Shown: positions 2,989 through 10,312, counted from the stretch's first letter. The stretch is DNA of 64,000 bases from an uncultured Pseudomonadota bacterium (GCA_963736005.1 CAVTNB010000001.1:992001-1056000); one strand, 5' to 3'. Made by a program: numbers and translations. The notes: generated from the sequence alone by a model not told the origin.

Positions 2989-3549
2989 ATGGGCGTTCAA
3001 GTCACTCTAGCTCTTTTCTTTGCCACAAGCGCAGCGCTCGTGCAACTTGCTTCGACCGCATTTTCTCTGACAAGCGGCGCGTTTGCCAACAACCGCACCA
3101 TTCCGCAGGTGTATTCCTATATGGGAAATGGCTGCACGGGCCACAACCTGTCGCCGCCATTGTCCTGGACATCGGGTCCTGCAAATACAAAAAGTTACGC
3201 GCTGACGGTTTTCGATCCCGACGCGCGGCCGGGTGTGGGGTGGTGGCATTGGGTGGTCTTTGACATTCCGGCAAACGTGATGAAGTTGCCGGCCGGTTCC
3301 GGGGCCGGAAGCGACGCTCTCACTCCGAAGGGATCGATTCAGGGAAGAAACGACTTTCAGATCATTGGATGGGGCGGACCATGCCCGCCGCCCGGGTCGC
3401 CTCCCCATCATTACGTTTTCACGCTCTACGCGCTCGATGTTGCACAGCTGTATGGGGTCAGCACGCTCACGAGCGGGCCCACCCTGCTCAAAGCCATGGA
3501 GGGTCACATCCTCGCCAAGACGACCTTGATAGGCCGCTTCGGCAGATAG
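2989..3549 (+). CDS. YbhB/YbcL family (PEBP, Raf kinase inhibitor-like) exported protein
   Basis: Signal peptide, NLSPPLSW, DPDA, WWHWVVFDIP, GPCPP..PHHYVFTLYALD. Confidence 0.93.
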   Translation: MGVQVTLALFFATSAALVQLASTAFSLTSGAFANNRTIPQVYSYMGNGCTGHNLSPPLSWTSGPANTKSYALTVFDPDARPGVGWWHWVVFDIPANVMKLPAGSGAGSDALTPKGSIQGRNDFQIIGWGGPCPPPGSPPHHYVFTLYALDVAQLYGVSTLTSGPTLLKAMEGHILAKTTLIGRFGR

Positions 3550-3553
3550 GATC

Positions 3554-3808
3554 CTAGCGCAGCAAACCCAGATTTGCGAACTCGGCAAGCATCCCATCGA
3601 CGTCGCCGCTGACCGTAACGCGGTCGGCCTCGCTCGCTTGGCAAATCGAATCGACGATATCCGCGGGCGTGCGCTGACCGTCGCACAGCTCGAGGATCTG
3701 ACCGGCCGTCCGGTTGAGAATGTGAACCTTTTGCGCCGAGAGGTGATACACGAGCACTTCTTCCCCAACGGTACGGATTTCGAGGTCGTCAGCTTTGCGA
3801 GGGTTCAC
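3554..3808 (-). CDS. PqqD-family RiPP recognition element (RRE)
   Basis: 84 aa with VGEEVLVYH, HILNRTAGQILELCDGQRT and C-terminal FANLGLL. GTGA overlap with the upstream gene. Confidence 0.92.
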   Translation of the reverse strand: MNPRKADDLEIRTVGEEVLVYHLSAQKVHILNRTAGQILELCDGQRTPADIVDSICQASEADRVTVSGDVDGMLAEFANLGLLR

Positions 3809-4929
3809 GTTCGTGCGACTCCTTGTTGATGGGGCGATTTTTCATCGCCCGATGTTTTCCCCATCGCGCCTGCATAGGCGAGCGCGAAGAGACCCGCGAT
3901 TGCCCGCCCAACGATGCGGCCGAACGAGCGCGCCTGCGGCTGCTCGTCGAGGCCATACCGTGGGTCGAGCAAACGCCAGGCCAGGGGACCCAGACGGCGA
4001 CCGGCGGCGTACCAGCCTTCAGTGAGCTGACAGCGCTGCGAAAAATAGAGGGGCACATCTTCACGCCGGGCGCTCCAATCAAGATACCGTCTTCCTTTTT
4101 GGGTCTGCGGCCACGCAATGCCGGCGATACGCGCCCCGAACGCCAGCGAGCCGCTGAATCGAATGGGATCGATTCGCTCCGCGGCAGCGATCTGCTGCAG
4201 CTCTTGTCTCTCGCTCTCGCCCAGTTTTGCCAGCAGGCGCGCGAGCAGCACGGAATCGCGCAAGCGGTGCAAACCTATCGAGTGCACTGCGAGGTGCAAA
4301 GCTGCTCCAGTGGCATCGAGGCACAACACATTACCGGCTGGGCCCTGCACCCATTCCGCGTGCGATCGCAACGTGTCCCAATCAAACGGAGTCGAGAGGA
4401 GTCCGGGCGGCGCAAGCGAGGTATGCAGCTCGACTGCGAATCCTGGAGTCGGCGGAAAAAGTGGGGCCGCATGATGGTGACGCGCCTTATACCGCTCGCG
4501 TAAGAGGGCATAATTTCGTTCGTCGTACCCCTGTGCGCGCAACGCTGCAACCGCATTTTCGAGCTCGGGCGCTGGAACGAGAATGTCGATATCGGAGCTC
4601 GCGTGCAGAACGAAGCCTGGTTCATCTCGGTATGAACGCGCCGCTCCTTTGAGGAGGGCGAACGGCACGTTGTGGCGCGCCAGCGTCGCCGCAATCGATT
4701 CTATCTGACCTCTCAAGGCAATCGTCAGCATCACGCCCTGCCGCACAAGAGGCTGGAGCACACGGCGAAGGTAATCGGCAGCTTCTCCTGCGGTTTGGAA
4801 CGTGCGCAGAGCTTCCACGAGTGTTGCGGAACACCCATGACGGCGAGCCACCGCAACGAGCGCCGACGGCTCGACCCGGGAGAGCGATCGCTCGAAGCCA
4901 ACGCGATCGCCCTGAACGACCGCGGCCAT
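3805..4929 (-). CDS. Nucleotidyltransferase (NTP_transf_5-like), probably the C-terminal part of a frameshifted S26-peptidase-NTase fusion
   Basis: LLKGAA, SSDIDILV and VELH motifs. The frame stays open upstream of ATG 4929 to at least about 5010 (LAGRRIGRALPWRRERSYLALVDS). Confidence 0.88.
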   Translation of the reverse strand: MAAVVQGDRVGFERSLSRVEPSALVAVARRHGCSATLVEALRTFQTAGEAADYLRRVLQPLVRQGVMLTIALRGQIESIAATLARHNVPFALLKGAARSYRDEPGFVLHASSDIDILVPAPELENAVAALRAQGYDERNYALLRERYKARHHHAAPLFPPTPGFAVELHTSLAPPGLLSTPFDWDTLRSHAEWVQGPAGNVLCLDATGAALHLAVHSIGLHRLRDSVLLARLLAKLGESERQELQQIAAAERIDPIRFSGSLAFGARIAGIAWPQTQKGRRYLDWSARREDVPLYFSQRCQLTEGWYAAGRRLGPLAWRLLDPRYGLDEQPQARSFGRIVGRAIAGLFALAYAGAMGKTSGDEKSPHQQGVART

Positions 4930-4999
4930 CGAATCGACGAGCGCAAGGTACGAGCGCTCGCGACGCCACGGAAGCGCTCTTCCAATTCGGCGTCCAGCA

Positions 5000-5443
5000 A
5001 GCTCGAGCTCGAAATGGCAGCGCGCGCAGAGCTCGAGTGCGGGCGTAGAACGCGCCCCGCATACGAAATATCTTCGTATCGACCCTTACGGCACCCGACC
5101 GGTCGTTTTCAAACACTGCTTTCACTTTGCCGACGAGTACGTTCGGGGCGGGATACTCAGGCGACCACGGCCGGGCGTCACCACATGTTTGCAGCTTGCC
5201 ATCGCGGAGACTGGTGACGCGATGGGCAACGAGCTTCCCGTCACTTTCGAAGACAACGACGTCCCCGACGGCAATTCGTTCGGCAACCGGGGCAAGTTCG
5301 AGCACCATTGGTTCCCGCATGAGCGGCAACATGCTCGAGCCCTGCATGGCGAGTCTCGGGGTGCTTGCCGATCCAAGGAGCAACTTGACCGCAGCGATGG
5401 CCGTCGCTGGATTTTGGATCTTCGATTCTGGACTGAGGCTCAC
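5000..5443 (-). CDS. S24/S26 signal-peptidase-like domain, N-terminal part of a probable fusion with the NTase (frameshift at about 5000-5012)
   Basis: GTG at 5443 overlaps the upstream stop (GTGA). GSSMLP (catalytic Ser), GDVVVF, VAHRV (Ser/His type) and CGDA. The frame becomes non-protein-like after ..RALPFRAR. Confidence 0.8.
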
Positions 5444-6393
5444 GGGCCAGCTACCGCAAACATCGGCTTCTCGCGACGAACGGTCGCAGCGATGAGGAGC
5501 GCGGTATCGTCTGGCGTTCCAAGCGTGAGCGCATAGGCGCGCGCCTGCTGCAGGAGTCCGGCAGCAGCGGCTAAGCGGTCCATTCCGGGCGCCGCTCCAG
5601 AAAAGGATGACTCGAGCAGTCGCTGGAGCGCATCGGGGCGCTCCAGCGGCTCTGCCCTGGGCGTGCGGGATTTTCCGGTAATGAAAAAGATTGACTCCAA
5701 CTTTGCGGGTTTTGGCAACGGACTTGCGCCAAAAACTTCGCAGAACTGAATGCATTCCCAATCTTTGCCCGCGTGCCCGCGCAGCGGGCGGGCCATGACG
5801 TCATCGTCTGGCACCTGTTCTGAGAGCAGCAGGTCGATACCGCCCGCGCGAACATTCATCGCTCGAGGAAATGGATAGACAAGTCCGTCCTTGAGCACGC
5901 ATCGTTCGTCCGTGTAGAGACCCATGCCGCGCCGCGCACATGCAAACGCGGTCGTCGACTTGCCACCGGTCGAAATCGCAGAAATGGCTGCGGCCGAGTT
6001 GCCAACGCTGACAGCGGCGGCATGAAATGATAGCAACGAAGGATGTATCCCAAAAAAACCGCGCCCAGTGACCGCGTCAGCGAGGAACGCCACCACGCCC
6101 GTTCCCCGCAAAACCAGAGGATATCGGAACGCCTCGCCCGGCTCGGTAAAGAAGCATGGTTCTTCGTCATCGCTCGCCACAGCGCAGCTGACAAAGTCCG
6201 GACGGCCGCTGCTCAAGAAACTGCGATAGCGCCAACGAAATGCATCGGCTTCGCCCGGCTGATTAAAATGCGCCGCGATTTTCGTGCCAAACCAATCGAC
6301 CAGCACCACCTCGCGCGCCCGATCGAGCAACGCCTGCCGCTTTGCGGCGTCGAGTTCTATGGCAATGAGGTTAGCGGCCGTTACGATGATCAC
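5440..6393 (-). CDS. HPr kinase-related P-loop kinase B
   Basis: FHAAAV...AISAISTGGKSTT...LYTDE and VYPFPR. Start placed at GTG 6393 by the GTGA overlap with the upstream stop. Confidence 0.82.
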   Translation of the reverse strand: MIIVTAANLIAIELDAAKRQALLDRAREVVLVDWFGTKIAAHFNQPGEADAFRWRYRSFLSSGRPDFVSCAVASDDEEPCFFTEPGEAFRYPLVLRGTGVVAFLADAVTGRGFFGIHPSLLSFHAAAVSVGNSAAAISAISTGGKSTTAFACARRGMGLYTDERCVLKDGLVYPFPRAMNVRAGGIDLLLSEQVPDDDVMARPLRGHAGKDWECIQFCEVFGASPLPKPAKLESIFFITGKSRTPRAEPLERPDALQRLLESSFSGAAPGMDRLAAAAGLLQQARAYALTLGTPDDTALLIAATVRREKPMFAVAGP

Positions 6394-7283
6394 GGCAGCA
6401 GGGCTTCGATTGCGTCGGCGCCATGCTGCGGTGTGCTCGCAACGATCCGGTAGCACGGAATGCCGGCCAACATTTCCGCCGTATCGACAAAACGCTCGAA
6501 GCCTTCGGTATGAGCGTTGAGTCGTTTCGTAAAATCGACAGCCGCAACCGCGGGTGAGACCTGCTCGGTTGTGGTGTTGGTTGAGCTCCGCTCGAGCATG
6601 AAGGCCGCTGTCAGCGGCGCAGGTTCCGCAAACACGTCCTCGCCAAACACGTCGCCGGCATCGATGTTATCCCAAACGCGATCGCCATGCTGCGTGCGCG
6701 GCACAGACGCTTCGCAGACCTGGCGCAAACGCGGATGGTGAAAGACTGAGAGCGTGCGCTCGCGGATGAGCAGCGCCCGGGGCAAGCCCGACACAAACCG
6801 ATCCGCACGGCGTATGAAGGCAAATTCGTCGCTGTAGAAACGTGCACCGCGGGTGAGGAGTTCGAGAGCGAGGGTCGTCTTGCCGATGCCCGACTGAGCA
6901 GAGATCAAGACGGCACAATTGCCGATGCGCAAGGCAGCGGCATACAGCGAGCGCCATGTCGTGTTTTGTCGAAAGCTCAAACGAATGAGCTTGCTGGAAC
7001 CGTAAAACGCTAACCGGAAGTTTGTGGTTGGTCTTTCGTCTGGAAACTCGACTGACTCGCCGTTAAAGTGCAGCCAATCGGCGCCATTGTGTGCCAGGAT
7101 CGAACCGCTGTCGCAGGTTGCGTCAAGCGGATCCGGCAACGGCACGATCGTGCGGCGATACGCCGCGCAAAAGTAGTCTAAAATTTCGGCGGCATCGCTG
7201 CGAACCACGAGCGTGCGCTCGAGTGTCGCAAATGCCTTTTGTTGCATTACGCTCGGGGACGTTGTGGCTGTGCTCGCAAGCAT
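6390..7283 (-). CDS. HPr kinase-related P-loop kinase A
   Basis: LYAAAL...LISAQSGIGKTT...FYSDE and GLPR. ATG 7283 has an AAGGA RBS. Confidence 0.82.
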   Translation of the reverse strand: MLASTATTSPSVMQQKAFATLERTLVVRSDAAEILDYFCAAYRRTIVPLPDPLDATCDSGSILAHNGADWLHFNGESVEFPDERPTTNFRLAFYGSSKLIRLSFRQNTTWRSLYAAALRIGNCAVLISAQSGIGKTTLALELLTRGARFYSDEFAFIRRADRFVSGLPRALLIRERTLSVFHHPRLRQVCEASVPRTQHGDRVWDNIDAGDVFGEDVFAEPAPLTAAFMLERSSTNTTTEQVSPAVAAVDFTKRLNAHTEGFERFVDTAEMLAGIPCYRIVASTPQHGADAIEALLP

Positions 7284-7376
7284 CGCTGCTTCCTTACCAT
7301 AGAAAAGTAGAGCGGCGCTCTCATGGCGGCCGCCCATTCCCTATGTCGCTTGCAAGAACCGAAGAAGGAATGAGAG

Positions 7377-7389
7377 CGCCTCATCGCGC
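7377..7389 (-). promoter_or_regulatory. 13-nt motif GCGCGATGAGGCG, copy 1, upstream of the kinase operon
   Basis: An identical copy in the same orientation lies at 7804-7816, upstream of the precursor gene. Confidence 0.35.
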
Positions 7390-7581
7390 TCGGCCAGCTT
7401 CAGACCAAGAAGATGACCTTTAATGTGTATTGTGCACCTTTTACGGCTCGGCTTCCTAATGGCGTTTTGAGGACGGTATTGGTCCAAAAGACCCTCGCAT
7501 TCGGTGAGGCCTCAGCAACTCTTCCCGCAGCGAGTGGAGCAGATGGAAAACCTCGCCGGGCATTGAGTCAATGGTAGCCGC

Positions 7582-7633
7582 CGCAATAAGAAGGAGCGAG
7601 GGTGCGTGCCTTGGCACGCACCCTCGCTCCTTC
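7582..7633 (-). terminator. Strong hairpin/terminator downstream of the precursor peptide gene
   Basis: Perfect 21-bp inverted repeat (7590-7610 and 7613-7633), followed on the minus strand by TTATT, 25 nt after the peptide stop. Confidence 0.8.
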
Positions 7634-7658
7634 GTCTGCGATCGGTTTCGACGCTGAG

Positions 7659-7766
7659 TTATCTATCCCAGGTGACGTTACTGCCGCCTTCGCACCAGTG
7701 GCCAAGAGCGGTTGCGAGAACGATGTTCGCGTCGAGCGATGCAATGATCTTCGGCGTGCTATACAT
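7659..7766 (-). CDS. Putative RiPP precursor peptide, 35 aa (MYSTPKIIASLDANIVLATALGHWCEGGSNVTWDR)
   Basis: Translated by hand, as it is below the ORF-track cutoff. GAGGAG RBS at 7779-7784 in an AC-rich leader, YxxPxI leader motif, downstream hairpin, same strand as and directly upstream of the RRE operon. Confidence 0.8.
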   Translation of the reverse strand: MYSTPKIIASLDANIVLATALGHWCEGGSNVTWDR

Positions 7767-7803
7767 TGTGGATGTTTTCTCCTCGGAGTTTTTTGTTGTG
7801 GAA

Positions 7804-7816
7804 CGCCTCATCGCGC
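7804..7816 (-). promoter_or_regulatory. 13-nt motif GCGCGATGAGGCG, copy 2, upstream of the precursor
   Basis: Identical to 7377-7389. Confidence 0.35.
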
Positions 7817-7973
7817 CCTTCGCACGGTGTTACCCGATGCTGCATCCCTCGTTCCATGTACGCTCTTTTCTTCCCCAAGAATTTCGATTCGATGTGGTAG
7901 AGACAAAGCCTCACCCCATATGGAAATGGGCCTCGCTCCGGCGCGTTCCTGGGCCGCCGATATTGTATATGAC

Positions 7974-8690
7974 ATGACCTCGGCAAACGGGTTATCGGTT
8001 CAACACCTTACGCGGAAATTTGGAAAACTCACCGCGGTAGATGATCTTTCGTTTCACGCGGCCCGCGGATCGATTCTGGGGTTACTCGGCCCAAACGGCG
8101 CAGGAAAAACGACAACCTTGCTTTGCTTGGCCGGGTTGTTGCGCCCCGACGCGGGGACGCTCGCCCTCGACAACGCTCCTCTAGGACCAGACCGCGGACG
8201 AGCCATCGCGCTCATCCCGGAGACGCCGGAAGTCTACGCCATGCTCACCGTTTGGGAGCACTTGGTTTTTGTCGCCAAGAGTTGCAAACTGACAGGCGAT
8301 TGGGCAGTTCGCGCGACAGATTTGCTGCAGCGCTTGGACCTAAACGACCGGAGAGACACGCTCGGCGAGGCACTGTCCAAGGGCATGCGCCAAAAAACGC
8401 TCATCGCGGCGACCGTCCTTGCTGGAGCACCCGTGCTGCTCCTCGACGAGCCAATGATCGGCCTCGACCCGAAAGGACAGCGCGAGCTTCGAGGCATTTT
8501 GCAGGAGCTGCGTAATGCGGGAACCGCCATTGTTCTGAGCACGCACTTGCTCGAATCCGCCGAAGCGATCTGCGATAATGTGCTCGTTCTCAACCACGGT
8601 CAGGCCGTAATCAGCGCGCCGATTGCAGAGTTGCACTTCGGCGAATTTGGGCGAAGCTTGGAAGACGTTTTCTTGGAAGCGACGCAATGA
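7974..8690 (+). CDS. ABC transporter ATP-binding protein (export type)
   Basis: GPNGAGKTT, LSKGMRQK, LLLDEP, STH. Start placed at ATG 7974; the ORF-track extension to 7602 is not protein-like. Confidence 0.93.
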   Translation: MTSANGLSVQHLTRKFGKLTAVDDLSFHAARGSILGLLGPNGAGKTTTLLCLAGLLRPDAGTLALDNAPLGPDRGRAIALIPETPEVYAMLTVWEHLVFVAKSCKLTGDWAVRATDLLQRLDLNDRRDTLGEALSKGMRQKTLIAATVLAGAPVLLLDEPMIGLDPKGQRELRGILQELRNAGTAIVLSTHLLESAEAICDNVLVLNHGQAVISAPIAELHFGEFGRSLEDVFLEATQ

Positions 8691-10312
8691 GCGACGTCGC
8701 GGCGCTGACGTATCTCGAAGCGCGCATGGCGTTCAACCGCTTTCGCCAGGTCTTGCGCCAGCCCGGACGACTCGTCTTGTGGACGTTGTTCCTTGCGTGG
8801 CTTGGACTTTTCTTCTTCACGCGCGTCTCCCACATTTCGGGGGGACCATACGGCCTGTTGATGCCGCAGAGCGTATCGCTGTTTTACGCGTTCGTTCCGG
8901 CCGCCTATATCATGCTTTTAGGGTTTCAAATTCGCTCTGGGAGTCGACGCCCGCCAGCAACGTTCGCCTATCCGGCGGATGCTCGCTTTCTTCTTGGCTC
9001 GCGTCTTAACCACGTGCTGGTCGTTTTTTGGCTGCAACTGCGCGAGGTCGCCTTTTCCGGAAGCCGAGTGTTTCTTGGCCTTTTCTTCGTCTCGTGGAAT
9101 TTTGCCGGCAGCGCGGGGGGACTCGTGCTGGCAACCGTTGCGTTATTGTCCGCGTACATTATATCTTTCGGCGTACGCTTGCCGGTATTTTTGGCGCAGC
9201 GCCGCATGCCGGAAGTTCCATTCGGAACGTTTGGGATTGGGTTGATGTGCGCGGGCGGTCTGACACTGCTGTTTCCAATTGCCCTCGCGTTTGCCTACGG
9301 CAACGTTCACTTGGCCTTTATTTCGGCCCAAACTGCGGTGTTCGCTCCGGGATCGTGGATCGTGGAGGCGCTCGCCGGCGATCATCGCGCACTCGCAGCA
9401 CTCTTGACCCTCGCGTTCGTCATGATTATTGGCGGCTCGGTTGCGGCAAAGGACGCTTATCCCGAAATTTGGGAGGCCTCCTCGCGGCTCTATGCCCTCC
9501 GAACGCTCGTTGCAAGCGGACGAGGGCTTTGGAATCGCGAGGCGTTGCGAGGCTTGCGAGACCCAGACCGAGTTCAGTCTGGCGTCCGTCTGGAGCGCGT
9601 TGCTTCATCGTCTGGTCGGCACGCGCCGGCCGGCGCCCTTTCGCTGGTTTGGAAAGAATGGATCGGACTGCGGCGCACGCCCGGAGGTTTGAGCGGCTCG
9701 GTGCTGTGGCTCTTCGGGGCTTGCGTCCTTGGATATCTCGCGGGACTCGCCGCAACGACGCTGACTTTCTTCATCTTAGTGGGCCCGCTCTTTGCAATTG
9801 CTAACATTTTCATCGTCATCGGATCGCAGAGCACGATCAATCTGGGCATCGAGCTGCGTAAGCCAATCTGGTGGCTTGCCCGTTCTCAGTTGCGAGACCG
9901 AATTCTCACGTGGATTCTGGGCACAACCATGCGGGTCGGTCCGCCGCTTGTCGCCGGTACGATCGTGGCCGGCGTCGCCATGCATTCGTGGCTCGTTATC
10001 GCTGCGAGCGCGCCTCTGATCCTCGTGTCGCTGTTCTTGGTGCAAAGCATCGGTGTGGCGTCGTATGTCGTGCTTCCCGGGCGCAACGATCTGCGCGGAC
10101 CGGGCTTCATGCTGCGGATTTTTGTCACGTACCTTGCGCTTATGCCGCCGGCAATTGGCTGGGCGGTAGCACAGTTGCTAAGCCAAAGCGCCGCTCTCGG
10201 GCTCTTGGTTGGCCTGACGGCAGCGTATGTGGAAGGGTGGACGCTTGCGATGTTCGCCGCCTCACGCCTCGAACAAAACGCGATGGCCTACGCGGCCGCC
10301 GAACAACGCTAG
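8687..10312 (+). CDS. Putative ABC exporter permease
   Basis: Many hydrophobic helices in two halves (LVWKEW in the second half). ATGA overlap with the ATPase. Confidence 0.85.
   Translation: MSDVAALTYLEARMAFNRFRQVLRQPGRLVLWTLFLAWLGLFFFTRVSHISGGPYGLLMPQSVSLFYAFVPAAYIMLLGFQIRSGSRRPPATFAYPADARFLLGSRLNHVLVVFWLQLREVAFSGSRVFLGLFFVSWNFAGSAGGLVLATVALLSAYIISFGVRLPVFLAQRRMPEVPFGTFGIGLMCAGGLTLLFPIALAFAYGNVHLAFISAQTAVFAPGSWIVEALAGDHRALAALLTLAFVMIIGGSVAAKDAYPEIWEASSRLYALRTLVASGRGLWNREALRGLRDPDRVQSGVRLERVASSSGRHAPAGALSLVWKEWIGLRRTPGGLSGSVLWLFGACVLGYLAGLAATTLTFFILVGPLFAIANIFIVIGSQSTINLGIELRKPIWWLARSQLRDRILTWILGTTMRVGPPLVAGTIVAGVAMHSWLVIAASAPLILVSLFLVQSIGVASYVVLPGRNDLRGPGFMLRIFVTYLALMPPAIGWAVAQLLSQSAALGLLVGLTAAYVEGWTLAMFAASRLEQNAMAYAAAEQR

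Follow-up and report, generated by a model that had tools for sequence, protein, structure and literature searches.

The stretch of DNA considered here (the window, 64 000 nucleotides) corresponds to C1:992001–1056000 of a 2.84-Mb, six-contig genome of an uncultured bacterium (G000), placed in the Eremiobacterota by the names attached to its homologues. The genome is 84% complete, and all genome-wide absences reported below are valid for that assembly only. Between positions 3554 and 10312 the window carries a candidate cluster for a peptide made on ribosomes and modified after translation (RiPP), in which a short precursor gene is accompanied by two HprK-like kinase genes, a signal-peptidase-like domain of family S26, a nucleotidyltransferase (NTase) and a discrete RiPP recognition element (RRE) of the PqqD family, with an ATP-binding cassette (ABC) exporter encoded on the opposite strand.

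Read in the direction of transcription, the minus strand presents the precursor gene (7659–7766; leader 7701–7766, core 7662–7700, stop 7659–7661), a terminator-like hairpin (7590–7633), a promoter-like non-coding block upstream of kinA (7452–7496), conserved as DNA in related loci L007–L012 and L014, and the hairpin motif GAGCGCGATGAGGCGCTC (7374–7391), which lies about 90 nt upstream of kinA and is the same motif that stands before precursor genes. In the window it precedes the precursor as GGGCGCGATGAGGCGTTC (7801–7818, minus strand), about 35 nt upstream of the start codon. Then follow kinase A (kinA, 6390–7283; PF07475, E = 7.7e-7 and TIGR04352, E = 6.4e-13, both under cut-off), kinase B (kinB, 5440–6393; TIGR04352, E = 1.1e-9, under cut-off), the archaeal/endoplasmic reticulum (ER)-type S26 domain (4999–5443; TIGR02228, E = 8e-8, under cut-off), the NTase open reading frame (ORF) (3805–4929; PF14907, E = 1.3e-25, 90.8 bits against a cut-off of 31.2) and the 84-aa RRE (3554–3808; PF05402, E = 8.8e-13, 48.8 bits against a cut-off of 23.4). 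The four reading frames of this enzyme operon are coupled by three GTGA stop/start overlaps, at the junctions of kinA with kinB, of kinB with S26 (GTG at 5443) and of the NTase with PqqD. On the plus strand, and divergent from the operon, an ABC ATPase (7977–8690; PF00005, E = 2.3e-26) is joined by an ATGA overlap to a PF16962 permease (8687–10312; E = 8.7e-13). The ATPase ORF opens at 7602, and we place its probable start at ATG 7977: conservation among relatives begins near residues 121–127 (about 7977), and upstream of that point the sequences of the relatives carry indels whose lengths are not divisible by three. The permease is conserved, and divergent from kinA, in L007, L008, L009, L010 and L014. 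Only PqqD, the NTase and the transporter pass curated family thresholds. The flanking genes have housekeeping functions (a phosphatidylethanolamine-binding protein (PEBP), a short-chain dehydrogenase/reductase, solute-binding proteins and nadA/B/C), and the cluster boundaries set by the original prediction, which was made from the DNA alone, are therefore right; the ORFs and their junctions likewise confirm its description of a 35-aa peptide gene, a hairpin, a GTGA-coupled operon and a divergent ABC exporter.

Both kinases look catalytically competent, since each keeps its P-loop and DE motifs: K135, T136, D152 and E153 of kinA are invariant in 24 sequences, and GK[ST]TT and DE of kinB are identical in 17 of 17. 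A kinA profile matches the HPr kinase/phosphorylase structures 2qmh and 1jb1 over the P-loop (E = 7.9e-6), and a collection of 5.8 billion proteins holds 56 kinA relatives at 42–92% identity.

The same collection contains 69 homologues of the fused S26–NTase protein, nearly all of 460–570 aa. The S26 domain and the NTase lie in one frame in all five close loci and all seven distant loci that have both, and stop-to-stop frames of 525–628 codons cover the pair in 12 of 14 loci; the exceptions are L012 and L013, which have the S26 gene alone. A single S26–NTase protein had been proposed for the window as well; this stands for the 12 related loci and fails in the window itself, where the two halves are out of frame. 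There the S26 frame breaks near 4998 and continues out of frame to 4622, and alignment with L007 and L008 shows the window to have one surplus nucleotide near 4998. The extra base is also absent from the sole foreign contig that bridges the site (run X1, about 98% alike, 26 kb), and no sequencing run was found with the window's exact sequence across 4998.

The catalytic motifs of both halves are strongly conserved. In the S26 domain all 14 loci have identical SM.P, HR and GDA motifs, and 52 fused homologues show no variation at H74, R75, G88 or D89, with S37 present in at least 90% of them. In the NTase half of these homologues K265, G266, D284, D286, H323, H324 and E338 are invariant, as are the K-G...R and DxD motifs. 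L007 encodes an intact fused protein of 545 aa, for which AlphaFold returned a confident model (predicted local distance difference test score (pLDDT) 92.2, predicted template modelling score (pTM) 0.85). A Foldseek search with this model gave no match at E ≤ 0.001. Weaker matches (probability about 1.0) paired the C-terminal half with the nucleotidyltransferases MenT1, ANT(2'')-Ia and TM1012 (E = 4e-3 and weaker) and the N-terminal half with human SEC11, UmuD', LexA and SipA, the best signal-peptidase fold match being human SEC11 (7p2q_A, probability 1.0, E = 0.04). A word-based search with the S26 domain alone recovered four close relatives only, LppS-like proteins (see below) being out of its reach. 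Because the fused peptidase–NTase is modelled as one rigid unit at that pTM, it argues for a physical coupling of decoration and leader cleavage.

Within the phylum, 35 of 401 genomes and 20 of 116 genera have a match to the kinA profile (31 of 397 genomes without the unpublished G233, G344, G328 and G246). Twenty-eight loci were returned from species genomes, and 13 further loci were examined at 20 kb each. Five of the former (L007–L011) carry kinA–kinB–S26–NTase, followed by PqqD where the contig extends far enough; L012 and L013 are without the NTase, L014 ends within kinA, L015 has kinA–kinB–NTase only, and 19 weaker loci (L016–L034) have only the kinase P-loop region in common. The full set occurs at 27–45% identity in seven of the 13 further loci (L070, L071, L072, L075, L076, L077 and L079), the remaining six holding partial sets. 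A second ABC ATPase with about 1 kb of additional sequence lies between the NTase and PqqD in L008 (13490–15240), L010 (13430–15310), L011 (4603–6450), L070 (12905–14650) and L071 (5170–6878). The window and L007 are without this insert, and there the NTase stop overlaps the PqqD start.

The precursor, MYSTPKIIASLDANIVLATALGHWCEGGSNVTWDR, is 35 aa long and is preceded by a GAGGAG box 11 nt upstream. Its 22-aa leader has the form M-Y-x-x-P...D12...A20-x-G22 and is followed by a hypervariable core rich in Gly, Ser and Cys, predicted in the window to be the 13 residues HWCEGGSNVTWDR. A dedicated precursor with a YxxP leader had been predicted, with conservation of the upstream peptide in homologous operons named as a check, and all 14 loci with the S26 gene and both kinases do indeed have such a gene. 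It occurs in one to three copies between the exporter and kinA in L007–L012 and L014, directly upstream of kinA in the distant full cassettes (profile search), and 2 kb downstream on the opposite strand in L013; it was not found in L074, L081 and L082, which have kinase matches only. Across 25 aligned precursors Y2, P5, D12 and G22 never change, at least 90% have A20, and the span from Y to G is a constant 21 residues.

The small ORF might instead be a regulatory leader peptide or a chance ORF, with the enzymes acting on some other substrate, a reading for which no positive evidence emerged and that we regard as extremely improbable. The precursor evolves as a coding region, because entropy summed over 34 distinct leaders is highest at the third codon position (20.6, 13.6 and 33.5 for positions one to three) and because leader changes are synonymous: between the window and L007 the leader has two synonymous and no non-synonymous changes, and the core has three non-synonymous ones. 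The fixed 21-residue stretch followed by a hypervariable tail, the recurrence of one to three copies per locus, the accompanying PqqD RRE and the occurrence of the strict leader pattern eight times in this genome (once in the window and seven times elsewhere) all speak against a chance ORF as well. So does a search with the leader profile of a library of 1.84 billion cluster representatives, which gave 113 matches at E ≤ 0.001 (13 at E ≤ 1e-10), among them a single spurious hit to a 737-aa repeat protein; the library carries no taxonomy, and these counts say nothing on phylum range. Another 35-codon ORF (7456–7563, MPGEVF...) was considered as precursor and rejected: tblastn matched no more than 14 of its 35 codons, and these in a single locus, and its region is conserved as DNA, not as protein.

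Since conservation ends at G22 and signal peptidases favour small amino acids at −3 and −1, the leader is most plausibly cut after this glycine. Of the 105 library matches with a fitting leader, 101 have Gly at −1 and 96 have Ala at −3. Cleavage after residue 18 (V-L-A) may be an alternative.

The seven unlinked precursor genes (C1:265298–265396, C1:267436–267528, C1:663315–663419, C1:675283–675381, C1:1522887–1522988, C1:1659772–1659876 and C3:104610–104711) encode the same 22-aa leader and differing Ser/Cys cores in unrelated neighbourhoods, and no common enzyme was found near them (six regions by ORF listing, C1:662–679 kb also against Pfam). What they have in common with the cluster lies upstream. 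The 14-mer GCGCGATGAGGCGC occurs four times in the 2.84-Mb genome, three times before unlinked precursors (25–45 nt upstream of the genes) and once before kinA; a variant of the region, with one base changed beside the 14-mer, precedes the window precursor. The wider motif is a stem-loop, G[AG]GCGC-GATGAG-GCG[CT]TC, with a 6-bp stem and a conserved GAUGAG loop; as GAGCGCGAUGAGGCGCUC it is the hairpin motif found upstream of the precursor genes, and it also stands before most precursor genes in L007–L012, L014, L044 and L048. A CATATG box and a GGxCTTT[TC]G block are conserved further upstream. Of the six base pairs in the stem three are constant throughout, another differs in a single sequence and one has a double change; the alternation of G-U and A-U at one stem pair suits a sense-strand RNA, the covariation as a whole being too thin to decide. 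We infer that the stem-loop is a shared regulatory tag. The three unlinked genes inspected in detail each have the upstream motif and a terminator-like hairpin downstream, and the hairpin at 7590–7633 in the window has a perfect 20-bp stem (−56.8 kcal/mol, z = −8.8, none of 200 shuffles as good). An Rfam scan of 7200–8050 returned two sub-threshold chance matches only, with MIR531 falling on the terminator hairpin, and a sigma-70 promoter scan of the region returned no sites. One enzyme set probably serves all eight genomic precursors.

This combination of genes has a close counterpart in print. In May 2026 Popov et al. (Nat Commun, 2026; PMC13381572) defined the linear polyphosphorylated peptides (LPPs), based on the cluster lppA-K-B-S-D-N from Paenibacillus alginolyticus DSM5050. 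LPP clusters contain one to three precursors of 35–200 aa with the leader YxxPxVLxHQxIxFETxxS. Expressed in Bacillus subtilis, the kinase LppK places one to four phosphates on core Ser3, the phosphates persist on the product, and the peptidase LppS (catalytic S29, H68 and D93) cuts the leader after T-1 and requires the RRE LppB. The final structure and function of LPPs, like the part played by their NTase, are described as unsettled, and LPPs themselves as restricted to Bacillota. A term search of the supplements did not find Eremiobacter, Vulcanimicrobi or WPS-2; the peptidase network of the paper includes a few proteins from Acidobacteriota and Chloroflexota, with one Acidobacteriota row beside a non-LPP RRE (all PMC13381572).

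The cluster in the window resembles LPP clusters in having a signal peptidase I of archaeal type (Ser/His/Asp) in the same operon as a stand-alone RRE, a kinase like HprK, an NTP transferase (here PF14907), an N-terminal YxxP leader with a variable C-terminus and one to three precursor genes per cluster, and in having no macrolactam cyclase or B2 protease between 3554 and 10312. It differs in its two kinase paralogues rather than one, in the fusion of peptidase and NTase among its relatives, in an exporter that combines a PF00005 ATPase with a PF16962 permease instead of being MsbA-like (the role being the same), in a core of 5–27 aa (13 here) rich in Gly, Ser and Cys compared with 45 aa in LppA, in the seven further precursor genes scattered through the genome with their shared upstream hairpin, and in its phylum, Eremiobacterota rather than Bacillota. 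Tandem kinases, the peptidase–NTase fusion, the A-x-G leader end, short cores and dispersed precursors were not found in the accessible text on LPPs (PMC13381572).

On balance we propose, at a probability of about three in four, that the product of the cluster is an LPP-type ribosomal peptide, linear and phosphorylated on serine. The PqqD protein would bind the Y2-x-x-P5...D12 part of the 22-aa leader, and the two HprK-like kinases would phosphorylate a serine of the core, probably repeatedly, with Gly-Ser as a frequent setting. The PF14907 NTase would then probably decorate the phosphate with a group from a nucleoside triphosphate (NTP) or a nucleotide sugar, a role that is a guess. The Ser/His/Asp S26 domain would remove the leader, most likely after A20-x-G22, probably needing the RRE to present the substrate as LppS does, and the divergent ABC transporter would export the 13-residue product. 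A linear phosphopeptide released by a signal-peptidase-like protease was what the original prediction had deduced from the gene set, and the analogy with LPPs supports that deduction. Its claim to a new RiPP class does not survive: the enzyme logic is LPP logic, already published (PMC13381572), so the mechanistic deduction is sound and the class is not new.

Several points weigh against this assignment. The genes, their coupling, the catalytic motifs, the precursor family and the common upstream motif are observed, whereas the chemistry, including the cut site, how the two kinases share the work and what becomes of core cysteines, is deduced, and in an 84%-complete genome an accessory enzyme could be unassembled. 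The kinase and peptidase matches (TIGR04352/PF07475 and TIGR02228) all lie under curated cut-offs. No serine occupies a fixed core position, unlike Ser3 of the LPPs, and the leader ends in A-x-G, not F-E-T, sharing only YxxPx[IV][IL] with the LPP leader. A profile of 16 RRE orthologues finds its best structural match in the lasso RRE TbiB1 (E = 7e-5), with LppB (9x8z_B) at E = 0.76. Deletion of lppN had no effect and LppN had no detectable activity in the heterologous system (PMC13381572), which bears on the role given to the NTase. The frameshift near 4998 is either an assembly error or a real lesion, and the S26–NTase copy in the window may thus be damaged. Strict membership of the LPP family, or common descent with the Bacillota clusters, is not shown, because the RRE is nearer to TbiB1, the leaders share only the short motif and the exporter families differ.

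Modelling offers weak support for binding of the leader by the RRE, a check that had accompanied the prediction. The RRE–leader complex scored 0.50 against 0.02 for the best of three controls, with at least 91% of contacts shared between runs and a partner pLDDT of at least 58, with alignments built for this analysis. Among 157 solved complexes 116 passed the mark, as did 2 of 215 mismatched pairs; the passes at scores of 0.60 or below comprised only 18 of those solved complexes and both mismatches. Similar complexes have been solved, so the pass may reflect structures already familiar to the predictor. In a search of the PDB the leader profile gave chance matches to RecA only (E = 0.24), with no LppA or lasso leader chain among them.

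The composition of the cores bears on what becomes of the phosphate. Among 35 distinct cores from public loci and this genome (one split by hand, as the pattern missed its Thr at −3), Ser is present in all 35, Cys in 28 and at least two Cys in 20. Library precursors with a short N-terminus (n = 97) have cores of 5–27 residues (median 12), with Ser in 96, Cys in 66, at least two Cys in 47 and no Cys in 31; Gly-Ser occurs in 64 and [Gly/Cys]-Ser in 80 of the 105 that fit the leader pattern. With serine and cysteine this frequent, phosphoserine could be eliminated to dehydroalanine and a core cysteine could add to it, giving a thioether (lanthionine-like) ring without a known Lan enzyme; one kinase paralogue might assist, the second paralogue having no counterpart in published LPP clusters. 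We think this unlikely, given that the cluster has no lyase or cyclase family and the genome no LanC, that nearly a third of the library cores (31 of 97) have no cysteine to add, that both paralogues keep the full P-loop and DE expected of kinases, and that phosphates persist on the LPP product (PMC13381572). A broader version, in which the phosphate is an intermediate and the kinases and fused peptidase–NTase make thioether-bridged or nucleotide/sugar-phosphate-capped mini-peptides from eight co-regulated, hypervariable precursors that all carry one and the same 5' hairpin, is likewise a long shot; if true, it would amount to a kinase-based counterpart of the combinatorial prochlorosin system.

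Among the L053, L055 and L072 precursors some distant cores consist of Cys-free His/Gly repeats (SGSTHHGHGHGH), and several close ones are rich in His, Asp and Cys (HKWDGGGSHCECDH). Both kinds of core hint at metal binding.

An alternative to an LPP-type product is a lasso peptide, with the cluster as the tailoring half of a lasso pathway that has its cyclase and B2 protease at another place in the genome or in its unassembled part. In the phosphorylated and phosphoglycosylated lasso peptides (paeninodin, PadeK; pseudomycoidin, PsmK/PsmN), an HPr-kinase homologue acts on a precursor serine and an NTase on the phosphate, with an RRE and a YxxP leader; some lasso clusters of Bacillota encode the NTase as a fusion with the B2 protease, a parallel to the S26–NTase fusion (PMC8498205). 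The cluster in the window differs from these in having neither cyclase nor B2 protease, in that its fused protease belongs to S26 and is not transglutaminase-like, and in the site of phosphorylation: since Ser is the final residue in only 8 of 105 library precursors, the kinase target here cannot be the C-terminal serine.

The lasso-type YxxP leader, an RRE closest to lasso B1 proteins and two B2-like genes elsewhere in an 84%-complete genome could all be accommodated by a split lasso pathway, which we nevertheless consider very unlikely. Of three asparagine synthase matches in the genome, both full-length proteins start with MCGI and lie amid glycosyltransferase-like genes (named from sequence starts), and the third is a weak match over a short stretch about 32 kb past the window end. 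The MCGI start holds the amidotransferase nucleophile, which lasso cyclases are not known to have. The two transglutaminase-like B2 matches fall in two further cassettes (contigs C2 and C3), each of which has a PqqD, a kinase and an NTase of its own. With 5–27 residues and a variable first residue the cores would make poor substrates for lasso formation, a leader peptidase is encoded in the cluster itself, and in the 14 loci that have S26 and both kinases no further enzyme gene came up (tblastn queries with the window proteins only, without a family scan). No lasso-type cyclase was recognised genome-wide, the third asparagine synthase match not having been inspected, no YcaO or LanC matched, and all 16 radical SAM matches lie outside the window; the predicted absence of lasso cyclase, B2 protease, YcaO, Lan and radical SAM enzymes from the window is thus borne out, and the question of whether a cyclase or radical SAM partner co-occurs elsewhere came out in favour of the prediction. 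One weak radical SAM match, at C1:668 kb between two unlinked precursors, was considered as a RiPP maturase and rejected; the gene is of the lysine-2,3-aminomutase-like kind and has an AsnC regulator as its neighbour.

Two further comparisons help to delimit the LPP-type assignment. The HPr-rel-A system (TIGR04352/TIGR04353) also pairs an HprK-like kinase with PqqD and supplies the best NCBIfam matches for kinA, kinB and the RRE. All window scores are under the equivalog cut-offs, however (kinA 48.4 and kinB 37.8 bits against 200 for TIGR04352; PqqD 32.9 bits against 35 for TIGR04353), and the window genes are for that reason not members. We found nothing relevant in print under the names HprK-related kinase, HPr-rel-A, TIGR04352/TIGR04353, PF14907 or NTP_transf_5. 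With SipW and the archaeal/ER signal peptidases I (S26B) the S26 domain shares the SM.P, HR and GD motifs and a probable cut site with small residues at −3 and −1, but here it is fused to an NTase within a RiPP operon and is without the usual housekeeping context.

With this cluster LPP-type enzyme logic reaches the Eremiobacterota, an uncultured soil phylum, in a compact and translationally coupled form. Cores of 5–27 residues should be much easier to study by mass spectrometry and nuclear magnetic resonance than the 45-residue LPP, and a duplicated kinase together with eight dispersed precursors under one motif provides leads on how polyphosphorylation is built up and regulated.

Some neighbouring features deserve brief mention. 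A YbhB/YbcL gene (PEBP, 'kinase inhibitor'-like) lies directly after PqqD at 2989–3549 on the plus strand and keeps its position in L007, L008 and L011; its place is not kept in the distant cassettes, and it is for this reason probably a mere neighbour. Two DUF4760 genes (C1:665754–666392 and C1:672936–673550) lie about 2.5 kb or less from two unlinked precursors, with an extracytoplasmic function sigma/anti-sigma pair (C1:671328–672526) between them; the proximity of the DUF4760 genes to the precursors may be coincidence.

Elsewhere the genome holds two more cyclase-less cassettes (C3:19944–25351 and C2:33623–38894), each with PqqD-like, HprK-like kinase, family 2 glycosyltransferase (GT2) and PF14907 NTase genes, which are a closer fit to HPr-rel-A in gene content. 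The C3 cassette, which was scanned, includes an MftF/EpsD-like GT2 and a lasso-B2-like protein (NF033537, just above cut-off); in the C2 cassette the GT2 is named by sequence only, and a B2-like gene (C2:43245–43556) lies about 5 kb off. The third genomic PqqD match belongs to a pyrroloquinoline quinone operon (PqqB-, PqqC-, PqqD- and PqqE-like) at C1:1900621–1904140.

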